Counted from the first letter of the stretch, positions 2,778-58,515 are shown. The stretch: 64,000 nt of DNA from an uncultured Alphaproteobacteria bacterium (GCA_902587565.1 CACILT010000002.1:68884-132883); one strand, 5' to 3'. Translations and numbers: made by a program. The notes: a model not told the origin generated them from the sequence alone.

Positions 2778-3847
2778 TAATATCCTTTCATAATACTATA
2801 ATCAAAAGTGATTGTAAGATTTTTCCATAAATTGTATTTGTCTTGTGGAAGTTTTAGCGGTGTACATTCTGGGTTTAAAAGAGTTCTCATTGCGCTATCT
2901 GTAATTGGTCCATAAAATGGATTAGTTTTAGCTATATTTGTGTCAACAATACGGACACTATTTGATGAAACTTTCATATTTTGTAATACTTTAGCTGAAA
3001 TTGTTACCTGCATTCCTCTTTCTATAACTGCACCTGCTGGAGCATTCCAACAAGAAGATAGTTGCTGCCTCAACATGTCTATTTCAGATATTGATAGCAT
3101 AATATTGTCATCAGTATCATCTGTACTTTTATTATCAACCTCTTCAACCTCTTCCTTAACTTCATTTTGAACGATATTTGTTTTTTCATTTCTTAAATCT
3201 TTAAGCATTGATGCTATGCTAAAATCTTTTTCAGGTTTCGGCTTTGGTTTAGATACGGTTTTAGCATTTTCCAACTTTGGTTTATCCTTTATGTTTGTTT
3301 CAACATCTAAATCTGATTTAACATTTTCATTGTTTATAATTTTTGGCTTTGGCTTGAGTTTTGGTTTGATTATGTCAGTTTTAATTGTTTCTACTTTTTT
3401 CTTAACCTCTAAAATTTCCTTTTCTTTGATAACTACTTTTTTTGTTTCCTTAACTTCTAAATTTGGAGTTTGTTTCATTTCCAAAACTGGTTGATTTGGA
3501 TTAGTTTTTTCTTCAATTTCAGTTTTATTTATTTCAACATTTTTTTTTACTTCTAATTGATCTGATGAATTAAATTTTTTTTGTTTAGTAACTGTTTCCT
3601 TATTTTTATTTTCTGGTTTTGCAGTATCAGATTTTTTCAAATTGGTATTTTCGTCAACATTAAGTATTTCAATAGGTATTACGTTTGGAACATAGATTTC
3701 TTTTGTAGAAAAAAAATTTGGTAAGCCGACCATAAACAAAAGGATAATTAAATGTATTAGTGTTGAAAAAATAACTCCTGATGTTTTAGGATTTAAATTT
3801 TCAAAAAAGTTTATAATTTTTAAACTATTATAGCTTATACGATCCAT
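2777..3847 (-). CDS. tolA: TolA-like protein (N-terminal TM anchor, K/E/P-rich linker, TolA/TonB-like C-terminal domain)
   Basis: TM helix near the N-terminus, a long low-complexity K/E/KPKPK region, and a globular C-terminus. Positioned between tolR and tolB. Confidence 0.7.
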   Translation of the reverse strand: MDRISYNSLKIINFFENLNPKTSGVIFSTLIHLIILLFMVGLPNFFSTKEIYVPNVIPIEILNVDENTNLKKSDTAKPENKNKETVTKQKKFNSSDQLEVKKNVEINKTEIEEKTNPNQPVLEMKQTPNLEVKETKKVVIKEKEILEVKKKVETIKTDIIKPKLKPKPKIINNENVKSDLDVETNIKDKPKLENAKTVSKPKPKPEKDFSIASMLKDLRNEKTNIVQNEVKEEVEEVDNKSTDDTDDNIMLSISEIDMLRQQLSSCWNAPAGAVIERGMQVTISAKVLQNMKVSSNSVRIVDTNIAKTNPFYGPITDSAMRTLLNPECTPLKLPQDKYNLWKNLTITFDYSIMKGY

Positions 3848-4276
3848 CTATTGCTCAAGATTTTGAGTAATTAATGCAACTTTAATATATCCTGCTGAAT
3901 TTATTATGGACATAATTTCCATAATCCTTCCATAAGCTACCACTCTATCACCTCGTATATAAATTCTTGCTTCTGTGTTTTGTTCAGTAATAGCGTTTAG
4001 TCGAGGAATCAAATTTTCTACTTCAACCTTTGATTCTCCAATGTAGACTTCACCGTCTAACTTAACTGTTATCTCAATTGGATCTTTTATATCAGTTAAT
4101 GCAGTAGCTTTAACCTTTGGTAAATCAACTTTAATTCCAACAGTTAGAAGAGGTGCGGTAACCATAAAAACAATTAGTAAAACAAGCATAACATCCACAA
4201 AAGGTGTGACGTTAATTTCACTCATTTGAGTGTACCTTTGCTTCTTTCGTTTGTTTAAATTATTTGAGGTAATCAA
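3848..4276 (-). CDS. tolR: TolR/ExbD family biopolymer transport protein
   Basis: 142 aa with the ExbD-type motif INVTPFVDVMLVLLIVFMV. Immediately downstream of tolQ. Confidence 0.88.
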   Translation of the reverse strand: MITSNNLNKRKKQRYTQMSEINVTPFVDVMLVLLIVFMVTAPLLTVGIKVDLPKVKATALTDIKDPIEITVKLDGEVYIGESKVEVENLIPRLNAITEQNTEARIYIRGDRVVAYGRIMEIMSIINSAGYIKVALITQNLEQ

Positions 4277-4277
4277 T

Positions 4278-4991
4278 TTATTTTTTCTCTAATTGTCTAA
4301 AAAAAATTGTTGAGAATTCATCCATAAAAGTTTCCAAGGATATAAAATATTTTGATAAGTCGTTTGAAATTTTATTGTACGCAACTACAGCAGGTATAGC
4401 CACAAAAAGACCTAATGCAGTTGCAAAAAGGGCCTCAGCAATTCCTGGTGCAACTACTGCTAAATTTGTATTTTGAGCTATTGCAATAGATTTAAAACTA
4501 TTCATTATACCCCAGACTGTTCCAAATAACCCAATAAAAGGTGCAGTGGATCCAGCGGTTGCGAGAAATGTTAAATTTCTTTCAACATTTTCACTTTCTT
4601 TATTAAAAACAACTGTCATTGATCTCATCATTCTATCTTTTAAAGAGTTAATATCAGGTGTGTCATTTTCAAACTGAGTTTTACTTTTTTTCCACTCTAA
4701 AATCGCGGCACAAAATAATTTTGATTTTGGATCTGTCTGATTAAAGTTTAAAGTTTCATATAAATCTTCAAATGAATTTCCAGACCAAAAAATATCTTCA
4801 AATTCTTTTTCAAGTTTTTTTAATTGTCTAATTCTTAAAATTTTTGAAATGATTACATTCCAAGAATATAAAGAGGCTAAAATTAAAATTATAATTACTG
4901 ATTTAACTACAAGATCAGCTTGCATAAATAACGCAAGCATTGAAAAATCTGGAGCTTCTGTCGATAAATTTGTACTATTAATATCTGCCAT
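4278..4991 (-). CDS. tolQ: TolQ/ExbB family proton-channel protein
   Basis: 237 aa with MotA/TolQ/ExbB motifs (GSTAPFIGLFGTVWGIMNSF, APGIAEALFATALGL). Confidence 0.9.
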   Translation of the reverse strand: MADINSTNLSTEAPDFSMLALFMQADLVVKSVIIILILASLYSWNVIISKILRIRQLKKLEKEFEDIFWSGNSFEDLYETLNFNQTDPKSKLFCAAILEWKKSKTQFENDTPDINSLKDRMMRSMTVVFNKESENVERNLTFLATAGSTAPFIGLFGTVWGIMNSFKSIAIAQNTNLAVVAPGIAEALFATALGLFVAIPAVVAYNKISNDLSKYFISLETFMDEFSTIFFRQLEKK

Positions 4992-47792: not shown

Positions 47793-49478
<1,686 letters not shown>

Positions 49479-49787: not shown

Positions 49788-49829
49788 ATTTCCTCTTTTG
49801 TTAACTAATTGAAATTAAATAATTTTTTA

Positions 49830-49856
49830 TTAGCACTCTCATTATGAGAGTGCTAG
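49830..49856 (-). promoter_or_regulatory. CIRCE element (HrcA operator) upstream of groES-groEL
   Basis: TTAGCACTC-N9-GAGTGCTAG matches the consensus TTAGCACTC-N9-GAGTGCTAA at 17 of 18 positions. It lies 43 bp upstream of the groES start. Confidence 0.9.
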
Positions 49857-49929
49857 TTATTTAAGCATTATTAAAGTCTATTCAAGAAGAAAACAAAAAA
49901 AAATTCGAATTAGCCAAAGTTATGATATT

Positions 49930-50964
49930 TTGAAAAAAATGGTATTTTTTAGTGTTTTTTTTAGAACTCTTGGTTTTTTGAGCGCTTTATTAATTTTTAT
50001 AATAATTATTAATTTGTTACTTAATATTTCGAATGAACTAGAAAAAAAACAGTTTGTAATGACTGAGGGTATAGCTAGTTCAAATAACATTATAGCTAAT
50101 ATTAATTTAAATGGGCCAATTTTTAATAATAATAACAGCAATGTATTAGGAAATAATCTTTACGATTACATCAATCCCTCGCAAGTAAAATCTTATTTAG
50201 ATGAATTAAAAGAATTAAAAATCAAGGCTCTAATTATAAACATTAATTCTCCAGGTGGAACAGTAAGTGCTACTGCTGAATTAGAAAAAATTATTCATGA
50301 TTTTAAAGAACACACTAATACTAAAGTATATTTTTTTACAAAAGAGATTTTAGCATCTGGAGGATACTGGGTTGCAACCACAGCTGATAAAATATTTGCT
50401 TCATATGGATCTATTATAGGTAGTATAGGAGTAAGTGGACCAAGTTGGTTCTACTATAATACACCGACAAGTCTATCTTCAGGAATCTTTGGCCAAGCAA
50501 TTGAGACTAAAGAAGGAATAGAAGTTTTTAACCAGAATGCTGGAGAAGGCAAAGATTTGTTTAATCCATTTAGACGACCTAGAACTGATGAAATCAAACA
50601 CTTACAAAGTATTGTTGATGATGTTTATAATGACTTTATAACAAAAGTTTCAAAAAATCGTAAAATTGAAATTTCAAATTTAAAAAATGATATTGGAGCT
50701 TTAATCTACAGTAGCAATCAGGCAAAAAATAATTTTTTAATTGACGATATCTTGAATTACGAAACACTTATCGAATTAATAATAGAGGAAAATAAATTTG
50801 AAGATTACAAAATTTATGAAAATAGAGTAAGCAATTCAATTCTATCAAATTTATTAGTTAAGTACGAAGATCAAAGTAATAATGAATATTCACATGAAAA
50901 AATTTGCAGAAATTTAGAAACTAATATTAATGTTGTAATTCCAGTTTATTTAAAAGATTGTTGA
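49930..50964 (+). CDS. sppA: Signal peptide peptidase SppA (S49 family, 36K type)
   Basis: ININSPGGTVSA and LASGGYWVATTADKIFA. Confidence 0.82.
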   Translation: MKKMVFFSVFFRTLGFLSALLIFIIIINLLLNISNELEKKQFVMTEGIASSNNIIANINLNGPIFNNNNSNVLGNNLYDYINPSQVKSYLDELKELKIKALIININSPGGTVSATAELEKIIHDFKEHTNTKVYFFTKEILASGGYWVATTADKIFASYGSIIGSIGVSGPSWFYYNTPTSLSSGIFGQAIETKEGIEVFNQNAGEGKDLFNPFRRPRTDEIKHLQSIVDDVYNDFITKVSKNRKIEISNLKNDIGALIYSSNQAKNNFLIDDILNYETLIELIIEENKFEDYKIYENRVSNSILSNLLVKYEDQSNNEYSHEKICRNLETNINVVIPVYLKDC

Positions 50965-50965
50965 T

Positions 50966-51988
50966 TTATATTATGTTACTTAGTTCCTGAATTTTAACAA
51001 TTAGATTTTTATAGTAATTGCTTTGTGATAAAACATTATTGTGAATATATTTCTTAGCTAAATTAGAATGATTTTCAACATCAACTGTGTCAGAAACAAT
51101 TTTATTATGCTTAAGATTATTGATTAGAGATAAATTTAAATATCTGTCTTCAAGAATTTTTTCATTATCTTTAAAAGATGGTGTAATCTCAAAAATTTCA
51201 GTTCCAGGTTTACAAAAAATTATATTTGCTAAATTAGATCCATGTGGAGCAATAATCTTTTCAGCATTTGAAAAGATCTCTATTTGCTCATCTATTTCAT
51301 ATAATTGAGGATTAATAACCTTATATCCCTTGTCTCTCAAAATCGTTACTACATCACCTTCATTAATAACTTTTCTGTAATTAGAATCTTCTCTAGTTAC
51401 ATAGATTTTTTTGCTAGTTTCTATACTAGTATTTGGATTTATGAATTCTTTTAATATTTTAATAGAATCATTCAAACTTAAAAACTGAGGAAAATCAGAA
51501 TCAATAAAATGATAAAAATCATCGTCTAGAAATAAAAATGTAAATTCAATATTTAGAGATTTCAGAATAGTTCCAATAAAGTTTCTATATTTGTTTGATG
51601 AGTTTCTATGAATTGCTAGTTTTAGATTTGTTTTTTTATTAAAGAAAATCCTTGGAAGAAATTGTAGTAAATTTGAATAATAATTATTACCCGCATTTGA
51701 TCCTAGAACATACAAATCTTTAAACTTTTTTAATGAATTCTTATTATTTTTAAAATTATCAAAAAATTTTTGCGAATAAAAATGAGAGATATTGTTAAGA
51801 TCTCTTGTAAATAAAGATGAAAATGTCTCATTATTTTCAGTAATTGGAAAATAGTAAAATGAATCAGAAAAAAAATTGCTTTTAAGTATATTACAATTAA
51901 TTGATAAATTACTGAAATTTGCATTAAAAAATAGATTTGATAAACGAGTATCGTTTTTTATTTTGTTAGATTTAATATCAACTATCAT
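50966..51988 (-). CDS. Glycosyltransferase family 61 / DUF563 protein
   Basis: C-terminal HGSNLANIIFCKPGTEIFEI matches the DUF563 pattern HGAGLTN..F..PGT..IE. Confidence 0.6.
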   Translation of the reverse strand: MIVDIKSNKIKNDTRLSNLFFNANFSNLSINCNILKSNFFSDSFYYFPITENNETFSSLFTRDLNNISHFYSQKFFDNFKNNKNSLKKFKDLYVLGSNAGNNYYSNLLQFLPRIFFNKKTNLKLAIHRNSSNKYRNFIGTILKSLNIEFTFLFLDDDFYHFIDSDFPQFLSLNDSIKILKEFINPNTSIETSKKIYVTREDSNYRKVINEGDVVTILRDKGYKVINPQLYEIDEQIEIFSNAEKIIAPHGSNLANIIFCKPGTEIFEITPSFKDNEKILEDRYLNLSLINNLKHNKIVSDTVDVENHSNLAKKYIHNNVLSQSNYYKNLIVKIQELSNII

Positions 51989-52044
51989 TTAATTAACTTT
52001 ACTAATACAGATTTTTCAAAATTTATATAATAACATTTAATTTT

Positions 52045-52151: not shown

Positions 52152-52739
52152 ATGCTACTTTATAAAAAAATTAGTATGCGAATTGTAATAGCTATCATTT
52201 TAATTATAATTTTTAGCCAAGTAAGTAATGCAGATATTGGTAAAGAAACTGGTCTAGAAATTCCAAGGTATGTATCTTTAAAATCTAATGATGCAAATAT
52301 TCGTGTTGGCCCAAGTAAGAATTATCCTATTGAAATTAAATTTATAAAAAAAAATTACCCCCTAAAAATATTAGAAGAGTATGAAGATTGGAGAAAAGTA
52401 GAAGATTTTCAGAAAAATTTTGGATGGATTCATAAAAGTTTAATATCCGGTATCAGAACAGGCATTATTTTATCAAATGAAAATAAAACTATAAAATTAT
52501 TAAACACTTTAAACGGTAATGTTATTGGAGAAATAGGAATGGGAAATATTGTTTTTTTAGAAAAATGTAAAATTGATCTGTGCCAAGTGTCATTTGGAAA
52601 TCACAGAGGTTGGATAGATAAAAAACATATTTGGGGTATTAAAGAAAAAGAAACAATTAAAATTAGTTTTTTTCAAAGATTTGAAGATTTATATTGGAAG
52701 AGTATTAATTCTCTAAACAAAATTCAAAAGGGATTTTAA
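52152..52739 (+). CDS. Secreted tandem bacterial SH3-domain protein (DUF1058-like)
   Basis: Signal peptide followed by RYVSLKSNDANIRVGPSKNYPIEIKF...PLKILEEYEDWRKVEDFQKNFGWIHKSL, plus a second SH3b-like repeat. Confidence 0.7.
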   Translation: MLLYKKISMRIVIAIILIIIFSQVSNADIGKETGLEIPRYVSLKSNDANIRVGPSKNYPIEIKFIKKNYPLKILEEYEDWRKVEDFQKNFGWIHKSLISGIRTGIILSNENKTIKLLNTLNGNVIGEIGMGNIVFLEKCKIDLCQVSFGNHRGWIDKKHIWGIKEKETIKISFFQRFEDLYWKSINSLNKIQKGF

Positions 52740-52740
52740 A

Positions 52741-52787
52741 TTTGGCTGGGGCGGTAGGATTCGAACCTACGAATGCCGACTCCAAAA
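52741..52787. repeat. Distal att repeat: orphan copy of tRNA-Gln nt 32-76 plus 2 nt
   Basis: tttggctggggcggtaggattcgaacctacgaatgccgactccaaaa, compared by eye, is identical to 58439..58485. No tRNA 5' half follows it. Confidence 0.92.
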
Positions 52788-52852
52788 GTCTGTGTAACAC
52801 CCTTGAATCGTAGATAAACATTAGCATTCCTTGAATAATTTTTCATTAAAAA

Positions 52853-52881
52853 TTGCCGCGAAGTGAATCCAAAGTGCCGCC
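52853..52881. promoter_or_regulatory. Two TGCCGC-core motifs (TTGCCGCG, GTGCCGCC) 21 bp apart near the distal end; candidate integrase arm-type sites
   Basis: The same GC-rich core, in the same orientation, recurs twice at 58388..58406 next to the other att copy. Confidence 0.35.
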
Positions 52882-53012
52882 AGATTTATAGCTCTATTTG
52901 CTATCTCATTATCCCATTTTGTTAGGATAGATTCATGCATGTTACTACGTTAACAGATAGGTCAAAGGTAAGCGGTTTTGATTCTGTACGGGCAAATTTG
53001 GAATCTTAAACG

Positions 53013-53189
53013 CTATGTTTTAGGGGGTAGGTCGCCATCGCTCCGCGATGATTGTTCATCATTTTTCTTTTTTTTAGGTTGACTTTTTTTAGGCTCGCTA
53101 CCGCTCGCCTTTTTTCTTTTGTAGTGATTGTATGCTTCTTGCCGCGTGATTGGTGCAACAAGATCAGCAATGGTTTTGAGTCTGGTCAT
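53013..53189 (-). CDS. Small basic hypothetical protein (58 aa), last ORF of the element
   Basis: My own translation is MTRLKTIADLVAPITRQEAYNHYKRKKASGSEPKKSQPKKKKNDEQSSRSDGDLPPKT. It falls below the 60-aa cutoff of the ORF track. It is co-oriented with the other island genes. Confidence 0.35.
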   Translation of the reverse strand: MTRLKTIADLVAPITRQEAYNHYKRKKASGSEPKKSQPKKKKNDEQSSRSDGDLPPKT

Positions 53190-53340
53190 AATGTTGTGGT
53201 ACTTATAAAATTAGTTTAATCTCATTAGTGCCCCTACCCTAGCCCCTACCACACCTATATACAGAATTAACATCCATATAATGCTAGTAAAGGCTAAGTT
53301 AGGCACGAACGAACACTCGCTCAAACGCATGGATAAGACA

Positions 53341-53691
53341 TTATAGCGAATGACGTTGAGGTGTATGTGGTTGATGTAATTGTTTTGTTTTATCTTCCAC
53401 AAATTCTCTTATAGCTCTCTTACCCCTAGCTCTACGTGATATCTCTTGAACCGCGCTATAGTAGCCGCAGATGTAGGTCCACTTAGCAACAGACTTTCTA
53501 TCCTTGTCTGCACATATCTCTACTTTAGGTTTTGCTTTCACCAGCGGTTGCATAAGCTCTAGGTGCTCGTGAGCGTATTCTATATCTGATGGTAGCCATG
53601 AATTAACCTCATCAAATAATTTAGATAAAAATTTCTCATCTTTTTTAGAGAGAGAAAACGTATCTGGTTTATTGTTATGTATCCTTCCCAT
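53341..53691 (-). CDS. Hypothetical protein (116 aa), island accessory gene
   Basis: ATG preceded by AAGGAG with a 7-nt spacer. It overlaps the upstream ORF by 17 nt. I recognise no motifs. Confidence 0.55.
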   Translation of the reverse strand: MGRIHNNKPDTFSLSKKDEKFLSKLFDEVNSWLPSDIEYAHEHLELMQPLVKAKPKVEICADKDRKSVAKWTYICGYYSAVQEISRRARGKRAIREFVEDKTKQLHQPHTPQRHSL

Positions 53692-54040
53692 AGTATCTCC
53701 TTTTCCTTGGGTGTTGTTTTGGATTCAAAAATTCCAACTGAGGAATCTTTGCGCTTTCCTCCCGATACTCAGCACGCAATAGTTGCTGAAATTCTTCTGC
53801 TGACTCACAATCAAAGAACACGGTAACCGCACCATAATTATTAATGCCAAAGAAATGTTTACGACCACTCCTCTCGCAATATTCACGGACCAAGTTCATC
53901 CAATCGCCAACAAGCAGACCCGTAACACAATGATAAGCCATGGCACGCTGACCATCCCACTCACTTTCTGTTACTAGTAGTGCTTCATATTCATTCTCGA
54001 ATATCTCTATTGTTTTTTTAGTTATTTTTTTCTTCTTCAT
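53675..54040 (-). CDS. Hypothetical protein (121 aa from the internal ATG), island accessory gene
   Basis: The ATG at 54040 is preceded by AGGAG, which overlaps the primase TAG stop (TAGGAGAATTATG). The longer 132-aa version in the ORF track would overlap the primase gene. I recognise no motifs. Confidence 0.55.
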   Translation of the reverse strand: MKKKKITKKTIEIFENEYEALLVTESEWDGQRAMAYHCVTGLLVGDWMNLVREYCERSGRKHFFGINNYGAVTVFFDCESAEEFQQLLRAEYREESAKIPQLEFLNPKQHPRKRRYYGKDT

Positions 54041-54047
54041 AATTCTC

Positions 54048-56126
54048 CTAATATGGATCTTCTGGTGTTTCACTTACGAATGGAACATGCGCTTTGCTAG
54101 CTAGTGTGCCGTTGCCTTCTGTGTGCAATTCAACATCTGCCGCTAAGTCTGTTGCAGATGTAGCATCCCCAACTTCAAATTTATAACGCATGTGTGCTCT
54201 CATGTAAGTGATCTCGGAACACGTAACCCAATAATCAATATTACGTATCGCCTTGTAGCGTTTACGATTGGTTTTTTTATTTCCTATTATTGATACGGGT
54301 TGATTGTTCCATATTGGTTTAGCACCAATATTCTCTAACCATCGATGGATAGTCATCTCATCAAATCTGTCATACCTTGGCCGCTGTTTATTATCAGCGC
54401 GTTGATCATCCAAGTAACGTAAATGATTTAATATATCCCTCGTGTTAACTATATCTCTATCAAAGACACCAGACCGCTGTTTTAACAAGTCATCTAATTC
54501 TTTAAATGCTTGTGGTCTAGCAATCTGGATTAGTTCTTCTCTTGATGTAGTGTTAATCGGTTCGTTAGGATTGAATGAAGGACTTATCTCTCTATTCTTA
54601 TAATAATTATAAAAATGTTTTATAACTTCATCATTCTCAACGTCTGCCCATAACTTATTAAAATAATCTGGATCATCTTTTAAAAGTTGTTCTCTTGTTA
54701 TTCTAATAATTACAAAAGCTATACGTCTATCTGAACTCTCTGGTTTAATAGGTATATGCTTATTAGAAGATGCCCATAATCTAAAGTGCCCTTTATGATT
54801 AATAGTATCAACATACTTCTGTTCAATCGGATGCATGTCCTCGGTAATAAGTTCCTTTAGCTTATCTAGCTTCTGACCATTACCCGCGCCGCTGATATCA
54901 ATCTCATTACAAAATATGACGTAGCATGATTTCATAAATGATCTGTATTTATCAACTAGGTTGTCTGTATGAACCCAAGCGCAATTATGTTTGCCATAAC
55001 ACTTGTTTAAGAAATGAAACATTAATGTTTTGCCAACACCTTGTGCTGAAGAAAATATCCATGCAAAAGTTCTATTGCGTTCTGGATATTGAAAATCAAA
55101 AGATAATGTATCCTCTAAATATGCAAATGTTGCTTCGTCACCAGCACATAAAACATGCTTCATATGATTTCTAATATTAGCAATCAAATTCATGTCTACG
55201 TTTACAACGGGTGCTATGTAGTTAGGCCTAAACGTATTTAAAAATGTTAATGAACCATCTCTAATGATTTCATCATCACTTGGCCAATAAGCCGTACCAT
55301 CAACACACTCAATCCCTTGCTCATGTAGATATGCAACGGGGGTAACGCGTAGTCTAGTTCTATTCCTTTTATAAAGCAGATTTATATTCTGCTCTTTCAT
55401 CATCTTACGATTGTCTCTATCCCAATAGAGTTTCAAAGAGTCTATGATGTAGACTAAACGTTTACGGGCGATGTCATCATCTATATTTTCCCAACCACTT
55501 CTCTTGTCTGGTGCTTTAGCATTTTCAATTAGCTTACTAATGTTAATGCCATCTGGTATTTCATCAGCGAAATCCCAACCAATAGGAAGTGTATTAGGTA
55601 GATCAATAACACGTGCTTTTACGCCGTATTCCTCATCTAAATGCCACGCTATTTCTTCGGCAGCATCTACTCCGCCTTTATCAGCATCTGGTGCAATAAC
55701 CACGTCTGTAAATCCGCGTAACACGGACCAATCTGTCTTGCGCCAATTCTTACAACCTCCAGACCATGTAGTACAAAATGCATCTGGAAAATATGCTTGC
55801 ATAGCATCAGCAACTTTTTCGCCTTCACCAAATCTAATTTGATGATCTTGGTCTAGCTTCTGTAGCTTGTCTGCGTGAAGCGGCGGGCAATTCTTTATAT
55901 GCTTAGTAACGTTTACAAATTTGTTACCATCATATGAAAATTGGAATATTCTTTTGCTACCATCTTTATTAATATGACGTATCACACCTTTAATGGTCCA
56001 ACCCTCTATAGTTTTGTAGAGCCAATATTTTTTATTATAACGATCTATATCGAATAATTTTAAATATGACGTATCATCATCTGGAAATGGATGCGTATTA
56101 TATTTTTTTAAACATTCAGCAGACAT
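54048..56126 (-). CDS. Toprim-domain DNA primase fused to a P-loop (SF3/D5-like or VirE-like) helicase
   Basis: Toprim motifs are GEGEKVAD and VVIAPDADKGG. Walker A is SSAQGVGKT and Walker B is VIFCNEID. At 692 aa it is typical of satellite, plasmid and phage replicases. Confidence 0.8.
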   Translation of the reverse strand: MSAECLKKYNTHPFPDDDTSYLKLFDIDRYNKKYWLYKTIEGWTIKGVIRHINKDGSKRIFQFSYDGNKFVNVTKHIKNCPPLHADKLQKLDQDHQIRFGEGEKVADAMQAYFPDAFCTTWSGGCKNWRKTDWSVLRGFTDVVIAPDADKGGVDAAEEIAWHLDEEYGVKARVIDLPNTLPIGWDFADEIPDGINISKLIENAKAPDKRSGWENIDDDIARKRLVYIIDSLKLYWDRDNRKMMKEQNINLLYKRNRTRLRVTPVAYLHEQGIECVDGTAYWPSDDEIIRDGSLTFLNTFRPNYIAPVVNVDMNLIANIRNHMKHVLCAGDEATFAYLEDTLSFDFQYPERNRTFAWIFSSAQGVGKTLMFHFLNKCYGKHNCAWVHTDNLVDKYRSFMKSCYVIFCNEIDISGAGNGQKLDKLKELITEDMHPIEQKYVDTINHKGHFRLWASSNKHIPIKPESSDRRIAFVIIRITREQLLKDDPDYFNKLWADVENDEVIKHFYNYYKNREISPSFNPNEPINTTSREELIQIARPQAFKELDDLLKQRSGVFDRDIVNTRDILNHLRYLDDQRADNKQRPRYDRFDEMTIHRWLENIGAKPIWNNQPVSIIGNKKTNRKRYKAIRNIDYWVTCSEITYMRAHMRYKFEVGDATSATDLAADVELHTEGNGTLASKAHVPFVSETPEDPY

Positions 56127-56458
56127 TAGAATAACCTCCTTTTAAAGAAAGCGCCTAACTCTTGCTGATCACAGCAACCGCTCAGACATCTATAGACAAC
56201 AACGTCTCTATATCTTCCGTGTTCGTCTTTATGTTTATTTGAAACAACCTCATTAATAACGAAACTATAATTTTTATCGTTATTTTTATGATTGTGTGAG
56301 AGTGGACAGCGGCAGATGTAGCCACCATCTTTTTTCTTATGATCTGGCAGATGCTTCATATGATCATCTAGGCCAAACCATTTATTATTTTTAGTAGATG
56401 TGTTATTATTATTTCTACTAAAACTTCTATTTAGTTTCGACATAATCGTTAATCCCAT
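56126..56458 (-). CDS. Stand-alone primase-type zinc-finger protein (CHC2-like)
   Basis: YICRCPLSHNHKNNDKNYSFVI resembles the CPxHxDxxPSLxI zinc finger of primases. A second Cys pair is present (RCLSGCC). Its stop overlaps the primase ATG (TAATG). Confidence 0.55.
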   Translation of the reverse strand: MGLTIMSKLNRSFSRNNNNTSTKNNKWFGLDDHMKHLPDHKKKDGGYICRCPLSHNHKNNDKNYSFVINEVVSNKHKDEHGRYRDVVVYRCLSGCCDQQELGAFFKRRLF

Positions 56459-56496
56459 GCTCCGTTACCAGCGGGGCATTTTCTTTTTACAAGAAA

Positions 56497-56679
56497 TTAT
56501 TTTTTGTTTTTGTCCTCCAAATATTCTTGAACCTTTTGCAGATCATAACGGACCGCTGATCTTGGACCAGATACCTTATAATAAGGAATGCCATCATCTT
56601 TCATGCGGTTTCTACGTAGTGTGTGAACACTTACGTTGAGTCTGTCTGCTAGTGTGTTTTCATCAACTAGTCTGTTCAT
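56497..56679 (-). CDS. AlpA/excisionase-family helix-turn-helix protein
   Basis: 60 aa. LADRLNVSVHTLRRNRMKDDGIPYYKVSGPRSAVRYDLQKVQEYL is the pattern of the MerR-like excisionase/AlpA HTH. Confidence 0.7.
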   Translation of the reverse strand: MNRLVDENTLADRLNVSVHTLRRNRMKDDGIPYYKVSGPRSAVRYDLQKVQEYLEDKNKK

Positions 56680-56718
56680 TTTATTTTTCCTTCAACAACA
56701 ATGGTAAGTTAAGTTTTA

Positions 56719-56744
56719 ATCACGTGATACTCACATCACATGAT
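56719..56744. promoter_or_regulatory. Tandem near-palindromic boxes ATCACGTGAT and ATCACATGAT (16 bp centre to centre) upstream of the alpA-like gene
   Basis: Read directly from the sequence. They lie 40-65 bp upstream of the ATG at 56679, on the transcribed side. Confidence 0.45.
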
Positions 56745-56995
56745 GTTACTTTCTACTTTCGGCTTTCTCTATGATCGGGATTTATTTTTTTTGTCTACGT
56801 GAGTTATAATTCCAAAAGTTTCTCACTAATGCTTTAGTTGCTAAAGCTGATTAATAATTAATTACGATTCAAAATATTGCAATAAAAAATATTATCTTTT
56901 TTTTATGGGATAAAAATATTTCACAAAATAAAACCAAACAATCCAGATGCGTTACTTGTGTTACCTCGTGTTACTTGGGCCAAGTTACAAGTAAC
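56745..56995. other. Putative replication origin: GTTACYT iterons bracketing an AT-rich tract
   Basis: GTTACTT at 56745, 56951 and 56970; GTTACCT at 56960; palindrome GTTACAAGTAAC at 56984..56995. These flank a strongly AT-rich stretch at about 56850..56940. Confidence 0.4.
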
Positions 56996-57156
56996 ATAGA
57001 GTATCTTTTTAGGCACGCGGCACAAGGATCACCGCTAATTATTATTCCTATAGGGCTCTTTCGAAGAGCTTCCAATTTGTACGGGCCTACACAATGTCTG
57101 CACATCTTCGCCGTGTAGTTTTTCCTTTTATCTTCTCTCGTTTTTTTCTTGTGCAC
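56971..57156 (-). CDS. Possible small zinc-ribbon protein (CxxC...CxxC)
   Basis: 61 aa with a GTG start, CRHC and CAAC 24 residues apart, and a basic N-terminus. No clear RBS, so coding status is uncertain. Confidence 0.3.
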   Translation of the reverse strand: MHKKKTREDKRKNYTAKMCRHCVGPYKLEALRKSPIGIIISGDPCAACLKRYSMLLVTWPK

Positions 57157-57365
57157 GGGTTACACGCCTTTCTTTTAAAACTTTAATGGGATCAACTTAG
57201 AGTCAGCGTAATAAAAAAAAGTTTTGAAGGGATGTGCGGCCGTGCAAGTGTGCAACAGCCGCAACATTATTTAATAATTTAAAAGAAATACCAATGGATG
57301 ATATAAATTAATCCAACCCACCAGATAATATTTCCCGCCAACCAACAAATGAAACCAAACATAAA

Positions 57366-58373
57366 TCATGCCCTCGTTTTCATTTTCTTTGCTAAGTGCT
57401 TAGCTTGAATATGAGTATAGCGTTTTAATGATGCCAGACTCGACCAGCCACCTTGTGCAGATAGTTCAGCAATAGACCAATCACTTTCTGCTAGATCAGT
57501 AGCACCTTGATGGCGTAATCTATGAAAAGTAAATACACCTTCAAGTTCGGCAGCTCTCAGCACCTTGCGCCAATAAGAATTGAAGCCGTTAACATTACAT
57601 GGAAAAAATCTACCATCAGTTGACCTAGGTAGAGACCTCAACGTTGCTATTGCTAACGGACTTAGACCAATCTCTCTTGGCTTTTTAGTTTTGGTAATGT
57701 TTATGCGTGCAGTTGCTTGCTCCCAGTTAACGTCTTGCCACTTCAGCCGCAAGAGCTCGCCCCTTCTGCAAAGTGTTTCTCTTGCAACAATTACAATCTC
57801 TTTCATAAAATATAGATTGCTCTTTGCACAAACCACCAACAGCTTCCGCCATTCTTCCCTAGTAAGTATACGATCAATCGGCGGTGGTTCAGCAGGCATT
57901 TTTATTGTGCCTACAGGGTTAACAGTAATTGGAATATTATGCTCAGCTTTAACTTTATTGATAGCTCTAGAGAACATCATCAGATACTTTTTTACAGTAG
58001 CATTTGACCTACCCTCTTCCTCTAGCTCATGATCCCTAAACTTAGCTAATACACTACCCGTGATGTCGGATAGATACATATTGCCAATCGGTTTTTTTGA
58101 CAAATGATCAATTAAGTATTTCTCTTTCTTATGATCAGTTGAATTTAGAACTAGGTATTTTTCATAATAAATATTTAATACCTCTTTCAGTTTAATATCA
58201 GATAATCTTTCTGCTTCTTGTACACGTCTATATGTACCCGTTTCTATTTGAGCTTCTGTTTTATAGGCCCACGCAGATGCATCTGACTTCTTCCAAAATG
58301 ACTTAACGACTCGTATACCTTTCTTACGAACATGCGCTTGCCACTTTTTATAATGCTTATTAATTGTAGCCAT
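57366..58373 (-). CDS. int: Tyrosine recombinase / phage-type integrase
   Basis: 335 aa. Box I context is CRRGELLRLKWQDV, HRLRHQGATDL supplies H-x-x-R, and the catalytic Tyr sits in LKRYTHI. It lies immediately downstream of the intact tRNA-Gln. Confidence 0.92.
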   Translation of the reverse strand: MATINKHYKKWQAHVRKKGIRVVKSFWKKSDASAWAYKTEAQIETGTYRRVQEAERLSDIKLKEVLNIYYEKYLVLNSTDHKKEKYLIDHLSKKPIGNMYLSDITGSVLAKFRDHELEEEGRSNATVKKYLMMFSRAINKVKAEHNIPITVNPVGTIKMPAEPPPIDRILTREEWRKLLVVCAKSNLYFMKEIVIVARETLCRRGELLRLKWQDVNWEQATARINITKTKKPREIGLSPLAIATLRSLPRSTDGRFFPCNVNGFNSYWRKVLRAAELEGVFTFHRLRHQGATDLAESDWSIAELSAQGGWSSLASLKRYTHIQAKHLAKKMKTRA

Positions 58374-58387
58374 TTCTTCCTTTCTAA

Positions 58388-58406
58388 GTGCCGCGTATGT
58401 GCCGCG
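58388..58406. promoter_or_regulatory. Direct repeat GTGCCGCG-N3-GTGCCGCG between int and the att core; candidate arm-type integrase sites or int operator
   Basis: Two identical octamers with 11-bp periodicity, 15 bp upstream of the int ATG and 33 bp from the att core. Related copies lie at 52853..52881. Confidence 0.4.
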
Positions 58407-58438
58407 AACACGTTCAATTCAGAATGCTACTATGATTT

Positions 58439-58485
58439 TTTGGCTGGGGCGGTAGGATTCGAACCTACGAATGCCGACTCCAAAA
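58439..58485. repeat. Proximal att repeat (inside the tRNA-Gln gene)
   Basis: Identical to 52741..52787. Confidence 0.92.
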
Positions 58486-58515
58486 ACCGGTGCCTTACCG
58501 CTTGGCGACGCCCCA
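58441..58515 (-). tRNA. tRNA-Gln (anticodon UUG)
   Basis: The reverse complement is TGGGGCGTCGCCAAGCGGTAAGGCACCGGTTTTTGGAGTCGGCATTCGTAGGTTCGAATCCTACCGCCCCAGCCA. It has the U1-A72 pair and G73 typical of bacterial tRNA-Gln and the anticodon loop TTTTGGA. It resembles E. coli tRNA-Gln. Confidence 0.9.

Follow-up and report, generated by a model that had tools for sequence, protein, structure and literature searches.

The tRNA-Gln locus and its insertion

A 64,000-nucleotide segment from an uncultured Alphaproteobacteria bacterium (CACILT010000002.1:68884-132883), here termed the window, carries an integrative element inserted in a tRNA-Gln gene. The element is found between an SH3-domain gene (52152-52739; PF06347/PF08239) and a gene encoding a 229-amino-acid protein of a SAR11 genome. 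An intact tRNA-Gln(UUG) gene is present on the minus strand at 58441-58515, as detected by ARAGORN and by Rfam (RF00005, 59.6 bits). A repeat finder applied to the 64 kb window shows a direct repeat at 52741-52794 and 58439-58492 with a spacing of 5698. The two copies are identical over 47 nt (52741-52787 and 58439-58485, read on the minus strand as parts of the tRNA), and the mismatch begins at position 48 (G vs A). The 47 bp repeat extends from tRNA nucleotide 31 of 75 (linear numbering) to the CCA end, plus 2 nt; nucleotide 31, at canonical position 32, opens the anticodon loop. The repeated unit of 5,698 bp comprises 5,651 bp and one 47 bp core. The perfect tRNA-fragment 47-mer recurs once in 64 kb, which is far beyond chance.

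The distal copy of the repeat begins 1 nt past the SH3 stop codon, with no tRNA 5′ half beyond it. At the opposite end, the 3′ end of the tRNA is separated by 65 nt from the gene of a tyrosine integrase (57366-58373, PF00589). The GC content is 0.34-0.43 inside the repeats vs 0.25-0.29 in the flanks, and the shift occurs exactly at the repeat boundaries. An earlier reading of the window, made by a model from the sequence only (the sequence-only reading), had described the perfect 47-nt repeat of the tRNA-Gln 3′ part, its start at the anticodon loop, the integrase adjoining the intact tRNA and the distal copy after the SH3 gene stop with no tRNA 5′ half; the repeat finder, ARAGORN, Rfam and Pfam confirm this description.

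Empty sites in related genomes

Homologous loci were fetched with the SH3 protein from 33 species-representative genomes, all of them single-cell genomes of SAR11 type (GORG 'AG-' isolates, with one labelled Pelagibacteraceae). Thirty of these loci reach the insertion site and are informative. The single-cell contigs L028, L032 and L033 end within or just after the SH3-domain gene, consistent with assembly breaks at variable or repeated hotspot DNA.

The flanks of the window are 89-94% identical to the sequences of the 30 related genomes, so the suggestion that the host is SAR11-like is borne out. All alignments end at 52787 and restart at ~58439, and the interior 5,651 bp is without a counterpart at the aligned locus in the relatives. 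It had been proposed that relatives might display empty sites, with the SH3-domain gene directly followed by tRNA-Gln. Such sites are present in 20 of the 30 informative SAR11 loci, where a complete tRNA-Gln is found 6-10 nt past the SH3 stop codon. Removal of 52788-58485 from the window reconstructs the unoccupied attachment site (attB): the alignment of the joined sequence with locus L002 runs through the junction with no gap, and 285/302 positions are identical.

Because of the empty-site loci and the gapless attB reconstruction, the copy at 52741-52787 can be assigned as the displaced 3′ half of the host tRNA-Gln (attL core); this is the position of the tRNA in the empty-site genomes. The intact gene is then a composite. 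Judged from the alignments, the functional tRNA consists of the host 5′ part and an element-supplied 3′ half (attR core, 58439-58485), and the same 47 nt joins both ends of the element in circular contigs.

Circular copies and virus-sized particles

An exact-sequence look-up of the 692-amino-acid primase of the element retrieved three contigs of 5,798-5,863 bp (L034, L035 and L036). When compared with the doubled 5,698 bp unit, these align end to end with 98.7-99.1% identity and are circularly permuted, with head-to-tail terminal overlaps of 77-170 bp. Contig L050, also circular, represents a variant that is ~91% identical and has the same core. The attP junction, i.e. the right end of the element, the 47 bp core and the left end, is found in L034, L035, L036 and L050. 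The circular junction that the sequence-only reading had proposed as a search target is thus present in four circularly permuted contigs, one of which originates from a <0.22 µm virome. The virome contig is L034, permuted and 99.1% identical; its source is Tara Oceans sample SAMEA2621085, station 70, 5 m, 0-0.22 µm filter, according to the description in a paper that used the sample.

Two relatives, L038 and L042, belong to project PRJEB4419, the Tara virome project. A further relative, L041, displays 1.5 head-to-tail units in a SPAdes contig (1-10055), with a unit of 6,714 bp and 99.7% self-identity over 3,341 bp; either concatemeric DNA or an assembly that ran around a circle of mixed variants could account for it. 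The 90%-identity cluster of the primase contains 75 member sequences, and the lineage is therefore common.

One alternative is an assembly artefact, in which the assembler would have fused a free circular element into the chromosome through the 47 bp that it shares with the tRNA. The exact element is integrated in one copy only and all other copies are free or circular, and several single-cell contigs break at the locus (L028, L032 and L033). The 47 bp repeat is shorter than the largest k-mers in usual assembly practice, and both junctions would need spanning reads. The geometry, however, is exactly that of integrase recombination, with the intact tRNA by the integrase gene and the displaced half at the far end. 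In addition, the same attL/attR layout with arm sites is present in eight independent genomes that carry derivatives (see below), and a relative is integrated by tRNA-Leu in a 62.6 kb contig. An artefact is considered very unlikely.

Genes of the element

All genes of the element are on the minus strand. The tyrosine integrase (57366-58373) comprises 335 amino acids and matches PF00589 (E 1e-24, 87.6 bits) and PHROG_1 (E 3e-57). The catalytic R (CRRGEL), HRLRH, W (GGW) and Y (RYTHI) align to the XerA-type recombinase 4a8e in an alignment that covers R, HxxR, H/W and Y. The closest phage integrases are ~31% identical and are from Ralstonia and Pseudomonas phages, not pelagiphages.

Downstream of the integrase gene and a non-coding region is an open reading frame (ORF) for an AlpA/excisionase-like helix-turn-helix protein of 60 amino acids (56497-56679). 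It scores 21.4 bits (E 3e-4) with PF12728 (HTH_17), short of the gathering score of 27, and also matches PHROG_66 'excisionase and transcriptional regulator' (E 1e-5) and TIGR01764 (E 3e-3). In all relatives this gene immediately precedes those for the zinc-finger protein and the primase.

A CHC2-type zinc-finger protein of 105 amino acids is encoded at 56126-56443 and shows a weak PHROG_47 primase match. The DnaG-type motif CPLxHNHxNxDxxxSF...CLSGCC (CPLSHNH in the window) is kept in the family, and a zinc-finger ORF is found in the same position in all relatives. This ORF probably represents the zinc-binding domain of the primase, encoded separately. Its stop codon and the start codon of the primase gene overlap as TAATG (56124-56128). 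This points to translational coupling between the two parts of a split primase, the zinc-binding domain and the TOPRIM-helicase.

The replicase gene (54048-56126) encodes 692 amino acids, with an N-terminal TOPRIM primase fused to a DUF5906/VapE-type (SF3-like) helicase. It matches PF19263 (56.9 bits vs a cut-off of 27.6), PF05272 and PHROG primase families, and its profile matches PDB 6k9c/6k9e 'Primase' with E 2.5e-18. The TOPRIM motifs EGE and PD.D and the GxGK Walker A motif (SAQGVGKT in the window) are invariant in 12 homologues.

Three accessory ORFs follow. Orf121 (53675-54040), whose function is unassigned, has a 40% identical homologue in L037 and differs from L050 by 13 synonymous and 5 non-synonymous changes. 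Orf116 (53341-53691) is predicted to be all-helical. It has a handful of homologues and a weak PADLOC match, PDC-M35B (E 8e-4); an exhaustive representative search gave six weak relatives and no credible family, one of the six being an ankyrin-repeat protein that is probably spurious. Orf58 (53013-53189) is small, basic and of doubtful coding status; it is called as a gene in L034-L036, and it shows 0 synonymous and 3 non-synonymous differences relative to L050 and L045. Apart from the PADLOC match of orf116, none of the three has a family in Pfam, PHROGs, NCBIfam or PADLOC, and homologue searches returned near-identical proteins only. AlphaFold2 models of orf116 and orf121 (pLDDT 53 and 56) were unusable and gave no Foldseek match with E < 0.3. 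Scans of the element with Pfam, PHROGs, NCBIfam and PADLOC detected no capsid, portal, terminase, relaxase or conjugation/secretion genes.

Between the integrated and circular copies no ORF has an indel, and the differences are overwhelmingly synonymous. Relative to L034, there are 14 synonymous and 1 non-synonymous changes in the integrase, 13 and 0 in the primase and 5 and 0 in orf116. By these comparisons the genes of the element are intact and under purifying selection. The integration can be regarded as recent because the displaced tRNA half is still perfect in the window, vs up to 5 mismatches in older remnants at the same site. The proposal that the element is recent, with intact ORFs, and possibly still excisable is supported by the synonymous-biased divergence, the perfect repeat and the circular attP copies.

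A different reading is that an old prophage or genomic island became fixed here, is decaying and has lost its mobility. The element is indeed small and without structural genes, and integrase-less remnants occupy the same site in other SAR11 genomes. In these remnants, however, the displaced tRNA half carries 1-5 mismatches, whereas here it is perfect, all ORFs are intact with synonymous-biased divergence, the site is empty in most relatives and circular attP copies that are ~99% identical were recovered from several independent metagenomes. This explanation is effectively refuted by the attP contigs together with the empty sites, and it is given almost no weight.

Candidate cis-acting sites

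Putative arm-type integrase sites are present on both sides of the core. The distal arm (52853-52881, plus strand) displays TTGCCGCG (52853-52860) and AGTGCCGCC (52873-52881), which are 66-94 nt from the core on its far side. The integrase-proximal arm (58387-58406, plus strand), 33-52 nt from the core, contains two direct repeats 11 nt apart, AGTGCCGCG and TGTGCCGCG. GTGCCGC and TGCCGCG occur in 5-6 copies in 64 kb vs 0.3-0.45 expected, and four or five of these copies are inside the element. In the variant L050, the distal arm has GTGACCA/GTGATTCC in place of the window motif, and the integrase-proximal arm has two copies of AGTGACCA in place of the window repeats. Of the 22 amino-acid differences between the window and L050 integrases, 8 fall within the first 23 residues (58305-58373). 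The arm repeats and the integrase N-terminus covary and therefore fit arm-type sites read by an N-terminal arm-binding domain. The arm repeats (GTGCCGCG in the window, GTGACCA in L050) and the integrase N-termini change together between two variants that are otherwise ~90% identical, which suggests that arm specificity co-evolves rapidly while the tRNA-Gln core stays constant.

The non-coding region between the integrase and alpA genes (56680-57365, minus strand) spans 686 bp. It contains an iteron-like GTAAC/GTTAC array at 56949-56997, consisting of one inverted pair and three direct copies with a spacing of ~10 nt, followed by an AT-rich tract. Five copies in 49 nt is a density reached in 0 of 2000 first-order Markov simulations. 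L050, L048 and L037/L047 carry the array at the corresponding position, and L037/L047 have nine copies. The region is conserved across lineages whose primases are only 63-66% identical, and a segment of 206 nt (56860-57065) is 80% identical to L048 vs 70% for the whole elements. The array and AT-rich region are interpreted as a putative origin of replication and/or an operator-promoter; a regulatory RNA is also possible. No RNA family besides the tRNA was detected in the element with Rfam at a permissive threshold, and a scan for sigma-70 promoters and terminators gave background levels. A 61-amino-acid ORF at 56971-57156 was rejected as a gene: it shows frame-breaking gaps, with 3 synonymous vs 5 non-synonymous changes in L050.

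Comparison with known satellites

Several classes of mobile element resemble the one described here. VEIMEs, marine satellites of under 5 to 16.8 kb, encode a tyrosine integrase, an AlpA or excisionase protein and a primase/helicase, and capsid genes are lacking. Phage particles contain them as concatemers, and integrated copies are known from Pelagibacter and other bacterioplankton (Eppley et al., 2022, PNAS; PMC9618062). Their definition is operational, based on concatemeric long reads from purified virions (PMC9618062). In gene set and host group the tRNA-Gln element agrees with VEIMEs. One near-identical copy was recovered from a <0.22 µm virome, an integrated copy is present in a bacterioplankton genome, and Pfam, PHROGs and NCBIfam gave no structural-protein match. 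The element differs in that concatemer packaging was observed for VEIMEs, whereas the element is known from contigs and is likened to them by their published description. The word tRNA has 0 occurrences in the main text of the VEIME paper, and the anatomy of att sites is not covered there (PMC9618062). The sequence-only reading had stressed that SAR11 genomes carry very few mobile elements, a view that is dated, as satellites have been known in Pelagibacter since 2022 (PMC9618062).

PICMIs of Vibrionaceae integrate next to fis and are experimentally helper-phage dependent (Barcia-Cruz et al., 2024; PMC10803314). The gene order of the element is that of PICMIs: int, a gap or small gene, alpA, one small gene, a DUF5906 primase and variable accessory genes by the att site. 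Order and size (~5.7 kb) are as in PICMI115, and capsid-remodelling genes are likewise lacking. The SatelliteFinder model of PICMIs combines an integrase (PF00589, PF00239 or PF07508), AlpA (PF05930 or PF12728) and a primase with DUF3987 or DUF5906 (PMC10803314). Of these, the integrase (PF00589, 87.6 bits) and the DUF5906 primase (56.9 bits) are present in the element, and the candidate AlpA protein scores 21.4 bits with PF12728, where the gathering score is 27. Many PICMIs carry iolg, a gene that overlaps int and is needed for excision (PMC10803314). Iolg is absent from the element, which is located in tRNA-Gln of SAR11 and not by fis in Vibrionaceae. The likeness is one of minimal gene content and of gene order; the element is PICMI-like in design and not a PICMI.

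Tycheposons of Prochlorococcus are flanked by partial-tRNA repeats, have an integrase, excisionase and primase/helicase as hallmarks and occur in viral-fraction metagenomes (Hackl et al.; bioRxiv 10.1101/2020.12.28.424599). Their definition in Prochlorococcus rests on hallmark gene profiles held in common, as one linked gene-sharing cluster. They are similar in size to the 10-20 kb PICIs and carry cargo operons or terS/major-capsid-protein genes (bioRxiv 10.1101/2020.12.28.424599). A tyrosine recombinase, tRNA integration with partial-tRNA flanks, an island at the tRNA that grows by repeated integration and keeps degenerate remnants, and a streamlined host from oligotrophic marine waters are shared features. 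The element, compared here by description, is smaller, has neither cargo operons nor terS/major-capsid-protein genes and resides in SAR11.

P4-like satellites and PICIs also have an integrase, an AlpA-type regulator and a primase-helicase replicase, and are parasites of helper capsids, a way of life that the element is presumed to share. P4 uses tRNA-type att sites. These satellites are, however, ~10-15 kb in size and carry functions for capsid-size redirection and/or packaging (sid/psu/delta, cpm, terS) together with dedicated repressors; neither these genes nor dedicated repressors have a match in the 5.7 kb element in Pfam or PHROGs. Known pelagiphages integrate at tRNA-Cys, tRNA-Leu and tRNA-Arg, and tRNA-Gln is unmentioned there (bioRxiv 10.1101/410191). 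All features of a generic tRNA-targeting tyrosine-integrase element, i.e. tRNA repeats, catalytic residues, an empty attB and an attP junction, are found for this element.

A probable satellite-type element and its possible vehicle

Integration in tRNA-Gln(UUG), the attP form, occurrence in the <0.22 µm fraction and purifying selection are demonstrated at the level of sequence. The element is probably an active, self-replicating integrative element of the marine phage-satellite type (VEIME/PICMI-like) in the chromosome of a SAR11 (Pelagibacteraceae) bacterium. The proposal of an integrative element in tRNA-Gln is thus retained and refined to the satellite type, but its novelty is lower than had been assumed: this is a new, well-resolved case of the already described VEIME/PICMI class and opens no new class.

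The 5,698 bp unit entered the chromosome by tyrosine-integrase recombination of its attP with the 3′ part of tRNA-Gln(UUG), which rebuilt the tRNA and displaced the host 3′ half to a position beside the SH3-domain gene. A cycle can be proposed on this basis. The N-terminal domain of the integrase would bind the paired arm-type repeats that flank the core. The AlpA/Xis-like helix-turn-helix protein may turn on excision and the downstream zinc-finger/primase operon. The split DnaG-like primase (the CHC2 ORF and the TOPRIM-SF3 helicase) would then replicate the circle from the GTAAC array/AT-rich region. The two or three orphan ORFs between primase and attP would constitute a variable accessory slot, and might act in phage interference or defence.

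Helper packaging is proposed because genes for a capsid, a terminase or conjugation are lacking, and by analogy we infer that a helper phage is involved. A helper pelagiphage would supply the capsids into which replicated concatemers are packaged, in the way demonstrated for VEIMEs and PICMIs. A concatemer of six or seven units would correspond to 34-40 kb, which is about the size of a podovirus genome. After delivery, the element would reintegrate in the tRNA-Gln of a new cell.

A number of observations weigh against this interpretation. No pac/cos site, small-terminase homologue or helper was found. The whole element, compared by blastn with 50,697 phage genomes, matched only tRNA-Gln genes of unrelated Pseudomonas and Xanthomonas phages. 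Searches of IMG/VR recovered no family member, whether by protein (the primase and a profile of 12 primase sequences) or by DNA (the exact attP junction and a conserved intergenic 24-mer); this database is probably biased against elements with no viral hallmark genes, and on this assumption the null result is regarded as uninformative. The <0.22 µm fraction also holds membrane vesicles, and the particle behind L034 may have been a capsid or a vesicle; the size fraction of the source sample is known for L034, not for L035, L036 and L050. Self-closing short-read contigs do not distinguish monomer circles from concatemers. The origin and the arm sites are assigned from repeats and covariation, and the AlpA assignment relies on sub-threshold matches.

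Some of these points are consistent with an integrative, self-replicating and plasmid-like element, comparable to a tycheposon with no cargo, which would excise and replicate in response to its own signals, e.g. stress, and spread in vesicles or as free DNA with no helper phage. Integration, excision and replication are all encoded by the element, nothing in it touches capsid or terminase, and neither pac/cos sites nor phage similarity were found. Vesicles pass 0.22 µm filters, and VEIME-like concatemers occur in vesicle fractions too (PMC9618062). Tycheposons, with the same hallmark set, have been found in both vesicles and capsids (bioRxiv 10.1101/2020.12.28.424599), and the tRNA-Gln site gathers cargo-bearing remnants as tycheposon islands do. 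On the other hand, the only study with separated fractions found such concatemeric elements to be far commoner in the tailed-phage fraction, at 2,000 vs 63 (PMC9618062). Strict helper-phage dependence has been established for the PICMI, the experimentally studied system with the closest architecture (PMC10803314). A 5.7 kb unit that has no transfer function yet is widespread, as the 75-member primase cluster indicates, also needs an efficient vehicle. Spread with no helper is thus unlikely, although it deserves serious consideration, and the phage-satellite interpretation is preferred.

Integrase-less inserts at the same site

Eight of the 30 related SAR11 genomes have inserts at tRNA-Gln that lack an integrase. 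These are 0.55-2.5 kb in length, have a host-like GC content (0.22-0.31) and are flanked by an intact tRNA and a partial tRNA-Gln 3′ half with 0-5 mismatches. They are located at L001:860-1501, L009:10592-11991, L016:10592-11655, L017:10580-12050, L024:10592-11648, L025:3146-6834, L027:881-1565 and L029:9640-11308, where L025 contains two inserts in tandem. The cargo consists of 1-3 genes, labelled by eye from their translations as methyltransferase-like, sulfotransferase-like, secreted (247 amino acids) and LRR-like.

Both ends of the inserts keep paired 'GTGnCnnn' repeats at the distances from the core that are seen in the full element. The integrase-proximal 50 nt next to the core of L050 (core 2147-2191) recur at the right ends of the L009, L024, L025b and L027 inserts. 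The match is identical in L009, where it continues for ~70 nt to the ribosome-binding site of the integrase, and has 2-4 mismatches in L024, L025b and L027. In view of this shared arm, the inserts look like deletion or replacement derivatives of L050-type elements with the att arms retained. With these arms, they might be mobilisable in trans.

A broader proposal is that satellite integrases mobilise such cassettes in trans and helper capsids ferry them between cells, in a form of integron-like gene exchange that builds a flexible genomic island in SAR11. This is speculative and, at present, rather improbable. If true, the integrases of the satellite family would do more than move satellites, and the cassette-bearing remnants at tRNA-Gln are the part of this work that might reach further.

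Relatives with other attachment sites

The primase profile retrieved 41 further metagenome loci. In the contigs that were compared, the alpA, zinc-finger and primase module is conserved, with primase identities of 37-66%. The integrases are swapped (28-49% identity), and the genes past the primase vary. Relatives adjoin tRNA-Leu(CAA), in one case in the 62.6 kb contig, tRNA-Arg(CCT) or tRNA-Gln. The tRNA-Gln core was sought in the more distant primase relatives and is absent there; these relatives use other att sites.

The tRNAs of relatives are at L051:5125-5209, L059:3149-3233, L066:7450-7523 and L070:5976-6050. In L051, L059 and L070 the full-length tRNA faces the element with its 5′ end, unlike the arrangement in the window; this geometry may reflect a longer core or targeting of the 5′ side, as reported for some pelagiphages.

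Several relatives were recovered as circular contigs of 6.3-11.9 kb, and the larger ones, L064 and L040, carry extra genes on the opposite strand. The 11.9 kb circular contig L064 encodes an Mrr-type restriction endonuclease (3414-4307; PF04471, E 2e-35) that is likely to be defence cargo. Six extra genes in L040 (6546-9555) gave no family.

Significance and genomic surroundings

SAR11 is the most abundant bacterial clade of the surface ocean, and to our knowledge there is no established SAR11 genetic system. The tRNA-Gln locus offers a fully delimited and evidently active SAR11 mobile element, with exact attB, attP, attL and attR sequences, candidate arm sites and origin, and a 5.7 kb split-primase replicon. 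It is a starting point for helper-satellite experiments in SAR11, and integration or shuttle vectors for this clade could possibly be built from it. Counts of attP, attB and attL reads in metagenomes would give estimates of the frequencies of excision and occupancy.

Elsewhere in the window, a rise in GC content to 0.38-0.43 at 47793-49460 was considered as a second island and rejected, as it corresponds to the GroEL (Cpn60) gene and not to foreign DNA. A stretch of very low GC content (0.20-0.25) at ~49800-52000 contains a glycosyltransferase family 61 gene (50966-51988), which is located just upstream of a tRNA-Arg(ACG) and the SH3-domain gene. This low-GC stretch may be part of a flexible region.

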